Shown: piece after piece, positions 6,629 to 41,067 of the stretch
Position numbering within the stretch: the stretch's first letter is position 1
Layout: the number at the start of each line of letters is the position of its first letter
Assembly: GCA_016235595.1 (NCBI GenBank)
Contig: JACRJX010000025.1
Location: 228,765 to 292,764, forward strand
Direction: 5' to 3'
DNA from: Verrucomicrobiota bacterium
GTDB lineage: Bacteria > Verrucomicrobiota > Verrucomicrobiia > CAIQCK01
DNA length: 64,000 nt
Program-made: the position numbers and the translations under genes
The notes under the pieces: model-generated
What the model was told of the DNA's origin: nothing
Seen by the model: only the letters and a program-made list of their open reading frames with translations
The model's database searches: none

Positions 6629-9553
6629 GTGATGAATGACCGGTTGGCAATCCTGCATCTCGAAGACAACCCTCGTGACGCGGAACTGGTTCGACACTCG
6701 TTGCTGCAAGCCACCGCGTTGACCTGCGACCTGCGGCTCGCACGCAACCGCGCGGAATACGAGGCCGCGCTGGCAGAAACCAAGTTTGACCTGATCCTCT
6801 CTGATTACGACCTGCCCGACTACGATGGAATCACTGCCTTGAAACTGGCTGCCGAGAAACAGCCTGATGTCCCTTTCATCCTGGTCACCGGCGCATTGGG
6901 CGAGGAGCAGGCAATAGACTGCGTGATCCTCGGCGCGGCGGATTATGTGCTCAAACAGCGACTCCACCGTCTGGCCCCGGCCGTGTCGCGGGTGTTGGCC
7001 GAGGCCAAGGAACATCAAGAACGCCGCAAGGCGGAGGAAGCATTGCGGGAAAGCGAGGAGATGCTCCGCTTGCTGATGGATTCCACCGCCGAGGCGATCT
7101 ACGGGCTGGACATGGACGGCAAGTTCACCTTCTGCAACGCAGCCTGCCTGCAAATGCTGGGCTATGCCCAGCCGAGTGATTTACTCGGCAAGGAAATGCA
7201 CGCGCTCATCCATCACAGCCGCGCAGATGGCACGCCTCTGCCGAAAGACGACTCCCGTGTCCGTTGCGCTTCACGGCAGGGCAACGGCACTCATGCCTGC
7301 GATCAAGTTTACTGGCGCGCTGACGGCACTTGTTTTCCCGTTGAATACTGGTCTTACCCCACTTGGCGTGGCGGAAGGCCCATTGGCACCGTAGTGACGT
7401 TCTTCGACATCACCGAGCGCAAGCGAATGGAGGAATCGCTGCGGCAGGAACAGATCCTGGTTCTGGCCTTGATGGAGAACCTGCCGGCTCGCATTTATTT
7501 CAAGGACACCGCCAGCCGCTTCCTCCGCGCTAACCCGGCCACAGCCAAATTCTTTGGCTTGAGCAGCCCGGCGCAAATCATCGGCAAATCGGATGCGGAT
7601 TTCTTCTCCCCAGAACACGTCCAAAAGGCTTTGGCCGACGAGCAAGCCATCATACGCACCGGACGGGCGATGCTGAACATCGAAGAGAAGGAAAAGTGGC
7701 CCGACGGCCATGAGAGTTGGGCATCGACCTGCAAATTACCTCTGCGTAACCCGGCAGGAACAATCATCGGCACTTGCGGCATTTCCAGCGACATCACGGA
7801 GCGCAAACGCGTGGAGGAGGAACGCGAGAAAATCCTCCGGTGGCGGCAGGGTGTTAACCAACTTCAACAGTCGCTTCTAGTGCCCGCCCCGCTGGAGGAC
7901 AAACTCAAGCTTGTCACCGACGGCATTGTCCAACTCTTCGAGGCTGATTTCTGTCGCATCTGGCTGATTCGGCCCGGCGACTTGTGTGAACTCGGCTGCG
8001 TCCATGCCGAACTGAAGCTAGGGCCGCATGTCTGCCGCTACCGCGACCGGTGTCTGCACTTGATGGCGAGTTCCGGCCGCTACACCCATATAGACGGCAA
8101 GGGCCACAGCCGGGTCCCGTTCGACGCCTACAAGATCGGACGCATCGCGTCGTGCAAAGACCGCAAGTTCCTGACCAATGACGTGACGAACGATCCCCGG
8201 ATTCACAACCACGAATGGGCGCGCGGACTGGGACTCATCTCCTTCGCGGGCTATCAGCTCCGAATTCCCGGTGTAAAAACGCTGGGGGTTCTCGCCCTGT
8301 TCGCCAGGCACCTCATCCTGCCGATCGAAGACGCCCAGCTGGATAGCCTGAGCAGCACCCTCGCTCAAGTCATCCAACACGCCCAGGCGGAAGAAGCACT
8401 GAGGGCGAGCGAGGAGAAACACCGGGGTCTCTTTGAAAGCTCCCGTGACGCTCTCATGACGGTTGAGCTTCACTCCGGAAAATTCTCCTCCGGTAATGCG
8501 GCCGCGCTGAAGATGTTCGGGATGAAGGACGAGGAGGAACTGATTTCTTACGGTCCGTGGGAACTATCTCCCGAACGGCAGCCAGATGGGCGAATCTCCA
8601 TGGAGAAAGCCAAGGAGATCAATGAGACGGCCTTGCGCGATGGCTCTCACTTCTTTGAGTGGACGCACCAGCGGATCGACGGCGAAGATTTTCCCGCCGA
8701 CGTGCTGCTGACTCGGATGGAGTTGGGAGGAAAGGTGATACTCCAAGCCACCGTCCGCGACATCACCGAGCGCAAGCGGGCAGAGGAGGAAATCCGCAAG
8801 CTCAACACCGATTTGGAGCGGCGGGTGGAAGAGCGCACCGCCCAGCTTCAAGAGGCGAACAAGGAACTGGATACGTTTTCCCACAGTGTGTCGCACGACT
8901 TGCTCGCGCCGCTGCGGAACATCAACGGCTTTGCGAGCATGTTGATCGAGGAACACGCCAAGCGGCTCGACGAGGAAGGCCGTCGCTTGTTGGGGACCAT
9001 CTGTGGCGAGGCCGATCGGATGAGCCAGATGGTTGGCGAACTGCTGGCGTTCTCGCGGCTCGGACGACAATCCATGCTTAGGAGCGAGGTGGATATGACG
9101 GCGCTGGCGCAAAGCGTGTTCGACCAATGCGCGGCGCAGGTGCCGGACCGCAAGCTCATGTTCAAGCTGCAACCGCTACCGTCGGCCCAGGGCGACGCGG
9201 CCATGCTGTCTCACGTCTGGGTCAATCTCATCTCCAACGCCATCAAATACACTCGCCCCAAACCGGTGGCCAAAATCGAGATCACCGGCCGCGCCGATGG
9301 CAACGAGATCGTCTACTGCGTGAAAGACAACGGCGCGGGTTTCGACATGAATTATGTACAGAAGCTCTTCGGCGTGTTTCAGCGGTTGCACACCGAGGCG
9401 GAGTTTGAGGGCACAGGTGTGGGGCTGACCATCGTCCAACGCATCATCAAGCGCCACGGCGGACGCGTTTGGGCCGAAGGAAAGGTCAACGAGGGAGCTG
9501 CGTTCTATTTCACACTGCCCAAACTCGCCGAATCAGGTCCTGTTCGCGACTGA
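6629..9553 (+). CDS. Hybrid sensor histidine kinase REC-PAS-PAS-GAF-PAS-HisKA-HATPase
   Basis: LHLED...DLILSDY receiver, three DITERK PAC ends, SHDLLAPL H-box, [21 protein letters not shown]. Confidence 0.95.
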
Positions 9554-9652
9554 TTCATTGCCGGCCATGGAGATTGTGCTGCGCGCGGGGCATTGAACAT
9601 AGGCGCAGTGCGAGCTGGCAAATCGCGTTCCCTGACAGATCATCACAGCTTC

Positions 9653-10915
9653 TCAACTCCGAGGCGGGACGCTGCCAGTGGATCGCGCCAGCGCCGACTG
9701 GTGCTGGCGGCGCAGCCAGATCAGGGCCGTCAACCCGACCAGCAGGACGCCACCCACCGCCCATGTGCTGGCGTTTGGATTTGCCGGCGCAAAATGGAGC
9801 GCAGCCGCGCCGATGGCGGGGCCGAAGAAGTTGCCGGCGCCGATGGCCGCTTCGTGTAGACCACCGTGTTCGCCTTTCGTATCGCCCACGTCCATTGAGT
9901 AGAAGAGTGACGAGTAGTAAATCAGGCCGACGGCGAGCCCGAACACGATCTGACCCAGCGCCACGAGCCAGAGACCCGGCGCCAACAAGATCATTAGGAA
10001 TCCGGCAATCAACGCGAGAAACGCCATCAACAACCAGCGAAACCGGTAATGCCAGCCGGTCCATCGCCACAGCAGCACGAACGCACTGAAGCGGGCGAAC
10101 AACCAAATGGAACAGAACAGCCCGCTCTGCGCAACCGTGAGTTCAAACTTGTGCGCGAGGCCGGGAATCACCGACAGCACGGTGTTCATCGCCACATAGG
10201 CAAAGGGATTTGCCAGCCAGGCCATTTTCAGGAACGTGGCCGGGCTGACGGGCTGCTTGAACGCGACGGCCTCGGGTATGTGCGAGGCAGGCGCTGGAGG
10301 AATGGGCGGCTCAGTCACAGCCGGCTGGCGTTCGAGCCAGATCAATGTCAGCAGTTCACCCAGATGAATGGTTACGGGAAGCCAGAAAAGGCTCGCCTTG
10401 CCGAGATGCTCGAAGAACGCGCCACCGACGAGATAGGCCATCGCCGCGCTGGAAGCCCACGTGATGTTGTAGATGCCCACCAGCCGGGGAATTTCACTCG
10501 GCGGCTCGCCTTCCGTGATGAGCGCCTCAAGGGCCGGCCACGTAAAACATATCGCGAGCATCCAACCGGCGAACGTTGCAACCTTGGCCCATACCGGCGG
10601 CAAGACCATGCCGGCAAGCAAACAGACGCACACACCGACGAAACTCACGCGCAACGACGTGTGGCAACCGAACCGCTGGGCAAATCGTCCCGACTGCCAC
10701 GAGCCGACGCAATAGACCAAGCCGTTGAGCGCGCTGACGGCAAGGTTGTCGCGGTTGCCGAAACCAAAATCGTCACGCAGTAGAAAGAGCAGATAGTTGG
10801 AGTAGAACGACGCCGCAAAGGAGCTGGCGCCTCCGAAGAGGAAATAGAGGGTTTTTCGCTGATGCCGGGTCATGGGTGGAAACAGGGAACGGGGTTGAAA
10901 GCGCCGCTCAACCAT
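9653..10915 (-). CDS. MFS transporter
   Basis: About 12 hydrophobic segments, SGRFAQRFG loop motif; start at 10915 or 10873. Confidence 0.8.
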   Translation of the reverse strand: MVERRFQPRSLFPPMTRHQRKTLYFLFGGASSFAASFYSNYLLFLLRDDFGFGNRDNLAVSALNGLVYCVGSWQSGRFAQRFGCHTSLRVSFVGVCVCLLAGMVLPPVWAKVATFAGWMLAICFTWPALEALITEGEPPSEIPRLVGIYNITWASSAAMAYLVGGAFFEHLGKASLFWLPVTIHLGELLTLIWLERQPAVTEPPIPPAPASHIPEAVAFKQPVSPATFLKMAWLANPFAYVAMNTVLSVIPGLAHKFELTVAQSGLFCSIWLFARFSAFVLLWRWTGWHYRFRWLLMAFLALIAGFLMILLAPGLWLVALGQIVFGLAVGLIYYSSLFYSMDVGDTKGEHGGLHEAAIGAGNFFGPAIGAAALHFAPANPNASTWAVGGVLLVGLTALIWLRRQHQSALARSTGSVPPRS

Positions 10916-39374: not shown

Positions 39375-39773
39375 TCAGGGTTTCTCGTTTTCTTGCTTGG
39401 GCTTCAGCAGCGACTCCAGCTTGTCAAAAGGATTGGTAACCAACGGCGGCGGCGTCTTATCGGGCGTCCTCTGCCCCTCGTAATACTTGCCGATCAGCGA
39501 CTTTTCGTGTTCGTGATCGTGACAATAGATACAGAGCAATTCCCAGTTGCTGCCGTCGGTGGGATTGTTGTCGTGGTTGTGATCCCGGTGATGGACCGTG
39601 AGTTCTCGCAGGCGCTTCCCGGAGAACTCGCGGCCACAACTTGCGCAGATGTGCGGGAAAATCTTGAGTGCCTGCTCTCGATATCCCTGCTGTCGAATTT
39701 CCTGCTCACGCAGAATCTCGGCGAGCAGTTTTTTATGTCCGTCGGTATTGGCTGGCGGTTTGTTGTGAGACAT
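39375..39773 (-). CDS. yajD: YajD-family HNH nuclease
   Basis: YREQALKIFPHICASCGREF...LTVHHRDHNHDNNPTDGSNWELLCIYCHDHEH. Confidence 0.92.
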   Translation of the reverse strand: MSHNKPPANTDGHKKLLAEILREQEIRQQGYREQALKIFPHICASCGREFSGKRLRELTVHHRDHNHDNNPTDGSNWELLCIYCHDHEHEKSLIGKYYEGQRTPDKTPPPLVTNPFDKLESLLKPKQENEKP

Positions 39774-39793
39774 TGTTGTAAACCACGGTGACT

Positions 39794-39961
39794 CTACTTG
39801 AAGCTGGCGGAAATCAGACTGCCCAAGGTTATTCCCAAAATGACGCTCCCCCACGGAGAGCTCGTGATCATTCATCCTCCCGAATGACAGCCGACGAACT
39901 TGTAATAGAGAAAACCACCCGCACCACCAACCACAGCGCCGATGATGAGTTTGATAATCAT
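39794..39961 (-). CDS. DUF6132-like small two-TM protein with in-frame UGA (candidate selenoprotein)
   Basis: MIIKLIIGAVVGGAGGFLYYKFVGCHSGG-[TGA]-MITSSPWGSVILGITLGSLISASFK-TAG; the TGA (39872-39874) occupies the second Cys of the family motif GCxxGxC-x-ITSxP. Confidence 0.75.
39836..39874 (-). promoter_or_regulatory. Candidate bacterial SECIS element
   Basis: After UGA: AUGAUCACGA-GCUCUCC-GUG-GGGGAGC-GUCAU; apical loop begins with G 17 nt after UGA; lower AUGA/UCAU pairing. Confidence 0.55.
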
Positions 39962-40058
39962 GACTCGTCTCAATCCATGAACCACAGGGCTTTGGAAGAT
40001 TAGCACACCGCGCGCTTGCGCTCAATCCCCTCCCCTGCCCATCCGGCCCGCCGCTGCG

Positions 40059-40088
40059 TTGACAACCCCTCACGCGGCTTCCTATACT
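40059..40088 (+). promoter_or_regulatory. Leaderless-type sigma70 promoter of galE
   Basis: TTGACA-18-TATACT, 7 nt before ATG, no SD. Confidence 0.75.
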
Positions 40089-40095
40089 CTGCGGT

Positions 40096-41067
40096 ATGCA
40101 CATTTTTGTTAATGGCGGCGCGGGATATATCGGCAGCATCTGCGTCGAGGAGATGCTCAACGCCGGACACCAGATCACGGTGTTCGACAATCTCTCGGAA
40201 GGCCACCGCAGCGCCGTGGACCCACGCGCGGCGTTCTTCCAAGGCGACCTCGCCAACTACGGCGATATCAGCCAGGCGCTGAAGCAAGCCGCGCCCGACG
40301 CGGTGATGCACTTTGCCGCAGCGTCACTGGTGCCGGAAAGCATGGTCAATCCGTCGAAGTATTTCCGCAACAATGTCGCCAACGGAATCAACCTTCTTGA
40401 CGCGATGGTTGAGGCGGGCGTGCGGCGGTTTGTGTTCAGCAGCACCTGCGCCATCTTCGGCACCCCGGACCGCGTGCCAATGACGGAGGATTTGCCAGTG
40501 AAACCCCTGTCGCCTTACGGCCAGAGCAAGGCGATGTTCGAGAGCATGTTGAAGTGGTATGAGCAGATCCACGGCATCCAGCACGTGAACCTGCGCTACT
40601 TCAACGCTGCCGGCGCGTCGGAACACTTTGGCGAGCATCACCGCCGCGAGACGCACCTCATCCCGAACGTCCTTGCCGTGGCCCTTGGCAAGAAGGAACA
40701 GGTGGAGATTTACGGCACCGATTACCTGACGCCCGACGGCACTTGCGTGCGTGATTACATTCACATCGTGGACCTTGCCAACGCCCACATGCTGGCATTG
40801 CAGTGCCACCAAAGTGTCAGCTTCAATCTCGGCAGCGGCGATGGTTACACCGTGCGGCAGGTGATCGAAGCCTGCCGCAAGGTCACCGGCCATCCGATTC
40901 CGGCCATCGAGCGTCCGCGCCGTCCCGGCGATCCGCCGAAGCTGGTGGCGTCTTCAAAGAAAATCTCCGCCGAGCTCGGCTGGAAGCCGAAGTTCGCCAA
41001 ACTTCAAGACATTGTCGCCAGTGCGTGGGCATGGCACAGAGCCCACCCGAACGGCTATCCGGACTGA
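40096..41067 (+). CDS. galE: UDP-glucose 4-epimerase
   Basis: GGAGYIGS, FSSTCA, YGQSK, LRYFNAAGA, DGTCVRDYIH. Confidence 0.96.
   Translation: MHIFVNGGAGYIGSICVEEMLNAGHQITVFDNLSEGHRSAVDPRAAFFQGDLANYGDISQALKQAAPDAVMHFAAASLVPESMVNPSKYFRNNVANGINLLDAMVEAGVRRFVFSSTCAIFGTPDRVPMTEDLPVKPLSPYGQSKAMFESMLKWYEQIHGIQHVNLRYFNAAGASEHFGEHHRRETHLIPNVLAVALGKKEQVEIYGTDYLTPDGTCVRDYIHIVDLANAHMLALQCHQSVSFNLGSGDGYTVRQVIEACRKVTGHPIPAIERPRRPGDPPKLVASSKKISAELGWKPKFAKLQDIVASAWAWHRAHPNGYPD

Follow-up and report, generated by a model that had tools for sequence, protein, structure and literature searches.

The E. coli gene fdhF carries its selenocysteine insertion sequence (SECIS) as a stem-loop directly 3' of the UGA codon, within the coding region. 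The same layout is seen in the gene described here, a frame of 55 codons plus TAG on the minus strand (39794–39961) of a stretch of 64,000 nucleotides from contig JACRJX010000025.1 of a Verrucomicrobiota bacterium, referred to below as the window. We consider it highly probable, at roughly 0.88, that this frame is a genuine gene missed by annotation and that it encodes a 55-residue selenoprotein, a two-helix membrane mini-protein of the DUF6132 family. This identity is proposed because the UGA aligns with a conserved cysteine, the frame downstream of it is under purifying selection, a SECIS-like hairpin covaries among relatives, and the machinery for selenocysteine (Sec) is complete in the genome that holds the window (G000). 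Compared with the fdhF element, the hairpin of the window has a GUG triloop and lacks the bulged U, and is best regarded as a candidate target of SelB.

A review of May 2026 counts 119 prokaryotic selenoprotein families and subfamilies, and the bacterial ones in its Table 1 include the membrane 'putative mercuric transport protein' (C/SxxU) and YeeE/YedE (PMC13188914). The catalogued selenoproteins and the window gene share a UGA at a Cys position, a coding-region SECIS 16–37 nt downstream with a G-first loop, a thiol-type motif and a patchy occurrence among Sec-using bacteria. The window gene differs from these entries in that its motif is C-x4-U (C-x3-U in G006, another genome of the genus) and not CxxU or UxxC, in that it has no sequence relation to them, and in that its product, of 55 residues, is predicted to be a hairpin of two membrane helices and not a thioredoxin fold.

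Much closer are the Cys forms of DUF6132 (PF19628), one of which is named 'YtxH domain-containing protein' by NCBI. They have the same length, the same two glycine-rich helices and the same G-C-x-x-G-x-C/U ... P-W loop, at 40–64% identity. In the Sec forms, Sec replaces the second Cys, the Pro that follows is often lost (U-M, U-A, U-L, U-S), and P-W is succeeded by Gly-Ser or Ser-Gly, whose codons form the 3' arm of the hairpin. Two short glycine-rich helices are also found in the glycine-zipper proteins (PF05433 and relatives), to which 10 of 65 aligned DUF6132 members show weak matches (best E 1.5e-4); these matches are marginal, and neither P-W nor a conserved pair of cysteines is present in the zipper families. 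CcdA/DsbD proteins have two essential cysteines, each near a proline, and six transmembrane helices. The likeness of DUF6132 to this family (CcdA/DsbD_TM, PF02683) lies only in operon position, between or beside a cytoplasmic thioredoxin (Trx) and an exported Trx-like protein in two groups of Sec forms (subtypes b and c, see below): DUF6132 has two helices instead of six, shows no sequence similarity and is not a member of PF02683.

The present analysis follows up a first reading made from the letters of the window (hereafter the sequence-only reading), which did not know of DUF6132 proteins being described as selenoproteins. Likewise, our full-text literature search on DUF6132 and PF19628 returned no publication that describes them as such. 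PF19628 does not appear in the text of the review, and its Table 1 contains no C-x4-U membrane mini-protein (PMC13188914); the nine new families named in the accessible part of the deep-Sep paper are different ones (PMC12013277). In NCBIfam (release 20), neither the window protein nor eight other Sec forms of several subtypes nor one Cys form is covered by a model; all of them gave noise far below the cut-offs. Judging from the parts of these papers at hand, there might be overlap with the older hypothetical families OS_HP1 and OS_HP2 (PMC1976440) or GOS_A (PMC2398784), and members may be listed in the supplementary tables of a large screen. Selenoprotein genes as such are well known; what is new is the family, its membrane setting and the link to thioredoxin, and the Sec-containing branch of DUF6132, a widespread family of unknown function, has apparently gone undescribed so far, the window gene being its founding example. 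Indeed, the Sec form occurs in a public protein collection only as a 31-residue fragment (P0008) that ends exactly at the Sec codon, which illustrates how Sec forms are hidden in protein databases and how DUF6132 selenoproteins are missed by routine annotation. With them, the prokaryotic selenoproteome would gain a widespread family, and the Sec residue, by marking the probable catalytic position, would offer a first functional handle on DUF6132, namely a redox-active or ligand-binding site in the C-x4-C/U loop.

A UGA codon at the position of a conserved cysteine

On the minus strand, positions 39961–39794 read MIIKLIIGAVVGGAGGFLYYKFVGCHSGG-TGA-MITSSPWGSVILGITLGSLISASFK-TAG, from the start codon ATG (39961–39959) to the stop codon TAG (39796–39794), with the TGA at 39874–39872 as the sole lesion; length and stop position are kept in orthologues. 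Frame, coordinates, sequence, hairpin and the gap of 20 nt to a downstream yajD-like gene had all been given by the sequence-only reading and proved correct on re-reading, as did its remark that the frame had escaped the list of open reading frames (ORFs): this list holds two halves only, 39872–40006 (44 aa, from an upstream GTG) and 39794–39871 (25 aa). The UGA (39872–39874, minus strand) is codon 30, which we read as Sec; in the family motif G-C-x-x-G-x-C its place is that of the second Cys. The first Cys of this motif, Cys25 (codon TGT, 39887–39889, minus strand), is invariant and is the proposed partner of Sec30 in a C-x4-U pair.

When Cys is written for Sec, the readthrough product matches PF19628 over residues 2–51 with an E-value of 7.5e-5 and 22.7 bits, so that family-like sequence does lie on either side of the UGA, as had been claimed before any profile search. 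No family other than DUF6132 was found in a Pfam search of the window protein. All 65 aligned members match PF19628 at E 0.01 or better (best 4.3e-13), and in their alignment (A4) residues G12, G16, C25, C/U30, P36 and G47 show no variation and G8, Y20, G24 and G28 almost none; the columns of C25 and C/U30 are invariant in a further alignment (A1) as well. The consensus loop of the 65 members, GCxSGACPITSNPW, agrees with the motif GCxxGxCPITSxP given by the sequence-only reading. We use this loop motif, as derived from alignment A4 and not from the Pfam text, as the family-defining feature, and the window protein displays it in full: G-C-x-x-G-x-C followed by P-W, between two hydrophobic helices, within about 55–60 residues.

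In an AlphaFold2 model based on alignment A4, with a mean pLDDT of 78, lower in the loop, helix 1 spans residues 2–22 (39896–39958, minus strand) and helix 2 residues 36–53 (39803–39856, minus strand), connected by a 13-residue loop that contains C25 and U30. Helix 1 is glycine-rich, and its extent is in line with conservation (G8, G12 and G16); helix 2 is encoded entirely 3' of the UGA, and its assignment is in line with the ratio of nonsynonymous to synonymous changes (pN/pS) given below. Generic membrane hairpins, none of them reaching E 0.001, were all that Foldseek brought up from the PDB, and a profile search of PDB sequences found no relative.

The TGA is not peculiar to the window. A search that covered 60 relatives revealed TGA at the same column in six of the seven other genomes of the genus (G002–G007; 60–87% identity), while the seventh, G001 (94% complete), yielded a Cys-type paralogue and no Sec form. 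Distant homologues and the within-genus paralogue have Cys at this column, in the context C-S-T-G-A-C-P-L-T-S-N-P-W. Six ungapped orthologues share the 55 codons and the stop position and are free of indels. Furthermore, pN/pS, calculated from pair sums over six genus genomes, amounts to 0.19 before the UGA and 0.39 after it (codons 31–55), a comparison that shows the signature of purifying selection in the frame 3' of the UGA. An independent DNA contig from another study covers 39532–39988 with 16 differences and has the TGA intact; a metatranscriptome contig of 184 nt (39864–40044), possibly of DNA origin, has it unchanged and extends only 8 nt beyond it. The paralogue of G001 (L030, G001:C47:7568-7726) carries an in-frame TAG at the conserved Trp, between SNP and IST, and is a pseudogene or the product of an assembly error.

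Sec forms also occur beyond the genus. An even sample of the phylum, comprising 401 genomes, contains a family member in 66, and three of these 66 have TGA at the column: G000 itself, G133 (…GQCTGSS-U-AAASSPWSG…) and G336 (…GCTGGG-U-PIWSSPWSG…), the last two belonging to other families of the phylum. G336 has a Cys form (L048, C13:33467-33619, beside an RND permease) as well as the Sec form (L069, C15:11039-11182). A scan of one genome per GTDB species gave 348 relatives, and among the best 80, which were kept, 73 have Cys and 7 have TGA, the carriers being the six genus genomes and one metagenome-assembled genome (MAG) of Leptospirales. The nearest of these best 80 come from MAGs of Verrucomicrobiia and Verrucomicrobiota, and the others from Bacteroidota, Bacillota, Spirochaetota, Fibrobacterota, Acidobacteriota, Aminicenantes and further groups. 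In metagenome contigs, a degenerate DNA pattern in which TGA was required gave 29 matches, 21 of them clear family members and 8 due to chance; these metagenome Sec forms fall into about six sequence subtypes. In a quick tree built on 51 columns, with 68 of 130 inner branches unresolved and one spurious row (L054_2) in the input, the Sec forms lie in seven groups, and its well-supported branches alone are compatible with a single origin. A second DUF6132-like match with TGA in G000 (C14:186377-186475, E 0.42) was rejected as chance on account of its weak score and an inspection of its sequence. Wholesale reassignment of UGA is ruled out, because the orthologue in G007 ends in TGA and UGA is thus an ordinary stop codon in the genus.

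The assembly of G000 (6.65 Mb in 48 contigs, 96.75% complete, 5.63% contamination) encodes what is needed for Sec insertion. Its tRNA-Sec (C15:14884-14975, L001) scores 65.4 bits against a cut-off of 47 and is called SeC, anticodon tca, by ARAGORN. SelD (E 5e-117), SelA (E 4e-123) and the adjoining SelB, recognized by its wing domain (E 4e-15), are encoded in a cluster at C14:550401-554537 (L009–L011). The selD gene has one in-frame TGA of its own (…SCAG-U-AAKLG…), and a hairpin comparable to that of the window gene, a GUU triloop on a stem of 9 bp, lies 33 nt past it; by these sequence features SelD is itself a selenoprotein. SelA was found in all five TGA carriers tested and tRNA-Sec, in a separate test, in four of five, plus G436; the Leptospirales MAG with a Sec form has tRNA-Sec (70 bits) and SelA. 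The sequence-only reading had been ready to give up the selenoprotein if selABC were lacking and the TGA were unique to one strain; instead, the machinery is present, and TGA recurs at this column in other genomes and in metagenomes, with Cys in the homologues. In G003 (C99, L023) the Sec gene (6993–7157, minus strand) lies about 700 nt from tRNA-Sec (7847–7940, plus strand) and adjoins selA (9215–10294, plus strand) in divergent orientation, a single case that is possibly due to chance.

The SECIS-like hairpin and its covariation

The hairpin GCUCUCC-GUG-GGGGAGC (39845–39861, minus strand) is formed by the codons S34-S35-P36-W37-G38-S39, its 5' arm covering 39861–39855, its loop 39854–39852 and its 3' arm 39851–39845. 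The distance from the UGA is 10 nt for the start of the stem and 17 nt for that of the loop. The bacterial SECIS model, as given by the review, has an apical loop of 3–9 nt on an upper stem of 4–16 bp, a G in the first two loop positions, a distance of 16–37 nt from UGA to loop, and an energy of -7.5 kcal/mol or lower (PMC13188914). With its 3-nt loop GUG, 7-bp stem, 17-nt spacing and energy of -9.4 kcal/mol, the window hairpin lies within this model, as set out there, on all four of its criteria.

The relatives provide the more telling evidence. Within an initial set of sequences, hairpins at or below -5 kcal/mol are present at this position in all nine Sec forms as compared to 3 of 32 Cys forms, and these three are close paralogues of one another. 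When the full model is applied to distinct sequences, a hairpin of -7.5 kcal/mol or better is present in 17 of 25 Sec forms versus 8 of 111 Cys forms. For the analysis of covariation we aligned the 7-bp stem of 15 distinct sequences from two protein subtypes; 99% of the cells are paired, and five of the seven pairs show double-sided changes (G-C/C-G, C-G/G-C, U-A/A-U, C-G/A-U and U-G/A-U). The covariation score of 0.622 compares with 0.176 in shuffles and was reached by none of 500, and control alignments with slid 3' partners scored at most 0.181. Serine codons change from AGC to UCG on both arms, preserving the protein and the pairing at once. The SECIS element suspected in the sequence-only reading has in this way gained a fit to the bacterial model and support from covariation. 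The forms of G133 and G336 have hairpins over the P-W codons whose loop, GGUC, is that of the fdhF apical loop. In the G006 orthologue, the hairpin shows a compensatory change from U-G to A-U.

The protein bears the imprint of this signal. Residues after P-W/F are G-S or S-G in the Sec forms and mostly I/V-S in the Cys forms, and this Gly or Ser-Gly follows from the hairpin being made of the S-S-P-W-G-S codons. Evidently, as far as can be judged from the sequences compared, the RNA signal has shaped the protein after the P-W motif, and the family would provide a clear case of a SECIS drawn from S-x-P-W codons that fixes the residues behind them.

Gene neighbourhoods and a putative role in thiol redox chemistry

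If decoded as proposed, SelB with Sec-tRNA(Sec) would bind the hairpin and insert Sec at UGA30, yielding a protein with two glycine-rich transmembrane helices and a 13-residue loop that bears Cys25 and Sec30. The two residues could form a selenylsulfide, and the resulting C/U couple might exchange reducing equivalents with thioredoxins, exported Trx-like proteins or CcdA. As thioredoxin-fold genes adjoin loci of the family, we tentatively propose, at slightly less than even odds, that the protein functions as a membrane-embedded thiol/selenol redox couple in a thioredoxin pathway. This couple would probably face the outside of the cytoplasmic membrane or sit within the membrane, and it may belong to thiol-based defence or to electron supply at the membrane. 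That the C/U pair is redox-active had already been suggested by the sequence-only reading; this is still something we infer, now with support from the gene neighbourhoods.

Of the Sec loci, 11 of 29 have a thioredoxin-fold ORF in their flanks, and of the Cys loci 35 of 107, about one third in a set whose members are not all independent. As a baseline, taken from one genome, 0.34% of random windows of 3.16 kb in G000 are hit by the same queries. By Pfam, the 136 flanking ORFs within the phylum include RND permeases (15), thioredoxins (6), outer-membrane factors (4), Redoxin (4) and AhpC (3), and also YeeE, YgaP and DUF302; the 135 flanking ORFs in other phyla include thioredoxins (10), rhodaneses (8), methyltransferases (5–6), ArsR (5) and desulfoferrodoxins (3). 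In Cys-form loci from other families of the phylum (L042–L067, e.g. L053:1492-3148), genes recur in the order RND permease, PG0541-family protein, DUF6132; the PG0541-family transporter-associated protein beside DUF6132 is P-II-like and has 96 aa.

Several Sec operons are more specific. In subtype b, two cytoplasmic Trx genes and a Trx gene with a signal peptide precede the Sec gene, which is followed by OsmC-like and ArsR genes; ORF sizes and order recur in six loci, and the start of the Sec gene overlaps the end of the exported-Trx gene by 11 nt. Subtype c has a TrxB-like flavoprotein, ArsR, Trx, the Sec gene and an exported Trx-like protein; here, too, the Sec gene shares 11 nt with the thioredoxin gene before it (L183). 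In subtypes d and e the Sec gene is directly followed by genes for a CcdA/DsbD_TM protein and a radical SAM enzyme, and in subtype f an exported thioredoxin-like lipoprotein is encoded nearby. In G133 a TusA-DsrE fusion and an exported thioredoxin come before the Sec gene, and in G006 a rubrerythrin gene lies downstream of it. Altogether, such neighbourhoods tie the C-x4-C/U site to thioredoxin, thioredoxin reductase, CcdA and genes of peroxide and superoxide defence, and they raise the testable idea of a route of reducing power to the membrane's outer face in many anaerobes.

The Sec operons of subtypes b and c contain no membrane protein besides DUF6132, and no CcdA homologue was found in the 7–15 kb of contig around these genes. 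It is conceivable, if rather doubtful, that a DUF6132 oligomer serves as a minimal two-helix conduit from cytoplasmic thioredoxin to exported thioredoxin-like proteins, replacing the six-helix CcdA/DsbD domain; if true, Sec would take the place of Cys wherever exchange has to be faster. CcdA genes stand beside DUF6132 in two of the Sec subtypes, d and e, as well as in three loci with Cys forms, so that DUF6132 may be a partner of CcdA rather than its substitute.

As for the topology, K and R residues counted in 135 proteins are more numerous at the termini than in the loop in 56, equal in 51 and fewer in 28, and the loops of subtypes b, d, e and f are devoid of basic residues. These counts weakly favour a topology in which both termini lie inside and the loop at the membrane's outer face.

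This functional proposal has to be balanced against a charge bias that is weak in those 135 proteins, against neighbours of the window gene (HNH, GalE, HAD, M48 peptidase, MscS and a two-component system) that are uninformative on function, and against other contexts, with RND pumps (15 of 136 ORFs), ArsR and methyltransferases, that point elsewhere. The main rival to a thioredoxin-linked role takes up these latter contexts: the same selenoprotein would use its C/U pair, within the membrane, to bind or pass soft metals or metalloids (Cu, Ag, Hg, As, Se) for efflux or detoxification and not for thiol-disulfide exchange. RND permease fragments are the most frequent neighbour within the phylum, accompanied by outer-membrane factors and the PG0541 protein, and the CusA/CzcA heavy-metal model of NCBIfam is the second-best match of these permeases; their best match, however, is to a multidrug subfamily, and since the ORFs are truncated every score stays far short of the cut-offs. 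The RND arrangement may, moreover, reflect one ancestral layout in related families. In other phyla, ArsR, SAM methyltransferases (5–6) and HlyD/CusB-like adaptors (4) would suit metal or metalloid handling, as would the proximity of the G003 Sec gene to tRNA-Sec and selA; yet ArsR-type regulators also govern redox and sulfur operons, and the neighbours Trx, TrxB, CcdA, OsmC, rubrerythrin and desulfoferrodoxin span more phyla. Metal or metalloid handling is the less likely of the two roles, at around one chance in four by our estimate.

Other readings of the UGA, and nearby features

Some observations speak against a selenoprotein gene at this site. With 22.7 bits, the window protein falls 0.5 bit short of the PF19628 gathering score of 23.2. 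The tRNA-Sec was not found in G336 (94% complete, 420 contigs), which does have SelA. The 71-nt region of the window folds no better than its shuffles (z 0.88; 168 of 200 at least as stable), and for this reason the case for the hairpin rests on the relatives and not on energy. Among the relatives, in turn, 8 of the 25 distinct Sec forms are without a perfect-stem hairpin that fits the model at -7.5 kcal/mol, namely all three of subtype d, one of subtype b (loop UUG), and L068, L132, L165 and L169 (perfect stem above -7.5); of these, at least L132 and L169 fold with internal loops, which the perfect-stem test does not credit. A single split, that between the two subtypes, accounts for most of the compensatory changes, leaving few independent events. 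Finally, TGA-ATG is found in all Sec forms of the window's clade, and in G000 a GGAGGA stands just before the TGA, making a translational restart there conceivable.

On the last of these points a split gene could be built, in which UGA30 is a true stop, helix 2 restarts at UGA-AUG and peptides of 29 and 25 residues are made. Gene callers do list the two halves separately, and the public protein collection has the N-terminal fragment of 31 residues. The GGAGG is not conserved, the glycine codons at its place being GGC GGG, GGC GGA or GGT in G004, G002, G003 and G006, and in other Sec lineages GCT, CCC, CTT, TCG or CAC follows the TGA, with no start codon before S-N-P-W. Met after Cys also occurs in Cys forms (C-M-I-T-S), and a restart would not call for a hairpin that covaries, starts its loop with G and keeps the spacing of a SECIS. 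We hold two separate peptides to be very improbable.

A pseudogene or an error, in which a TGC or TGT of a Cys-form DUF6132 gene became TGA by nonsense mutation or sequencing error, is more improbable still: TGA is one base change from a Cys codon, but it is kept in six more genus genomes down to 60% identity, in other lineages, in 21 metagenome contigs and in the independent DNA contig, and the frame past it is free of indels and under purifying selection, so that this explanation is excluded by the conserved TGA and the selected downstream frame. Equally remote is a 29-codon leader ORF with an intrinsic terminator or attenuator, in which the hairpin and its U-rich tail GUCAUUUUGG end transcription, since the hairpin, listed as terminator-like by a consensus scan, has no conserved run of U behind it, the U run being interrupted and variable in orthologues (AUUAUUCUU, GUCAUUCUC, ACCUUGUUU). 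The tail is itself coding, for the beginning of a hydrophobic helix that is conserved and corresponds by homology to DUF6132's second half, and the stop 25 codons further on is conserved.

Returning to the selenoprotein gene and its surroundings, an HNH endonuclease-domain gene (yajD-like; 39375–39773, minus strand; PF01844, E 4e-11) starts 20 nt past the TAG on the same strand. Gap and gene are kept in four other genus genomes (L019–L022) and are not found in G003 and G006. The HNH gene is a candidate operon partner, and its co-transcription with the Sec gene is plausible from this arrangement; a functional link between the two is not evident. A sigma-70-like TTGAGC-17-TAATCT upstream of the Sec gene, spotted by eye and kept in two relatives, is below the scan threshold and is not claimed as a promoter, and an Rfam scan of 39700–40050 gave noise only. 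On the opposite side, a GalE-like gene begins at 40096, divergent from the selenoprotein gene, and just upstream of it lies a strong sigma-70-like TTGACA-18-TATACT (40059–40088, plus strand; 11 of 12 matches).

Within the family, a few variants are worth recording. The G006 orthologue (L025/L090, G006:C2:68239-68397) has C-x3-U, its loop being one residue shorter than that of the C-x4-U forms. Subtype-b Sec forms (e.g. L162:1584-1799) end in a charged tail that carries one more Cys (…GLFCKTKKG…). In three MAGs of Acidobacteriota and Bacteroidota (L094, L135, L146), DUF6132 genes occur in pairs, spaced by no more than about 1 kb, and one copy of each pair is of a 'YYYFIGC' type with a longer charged tail.

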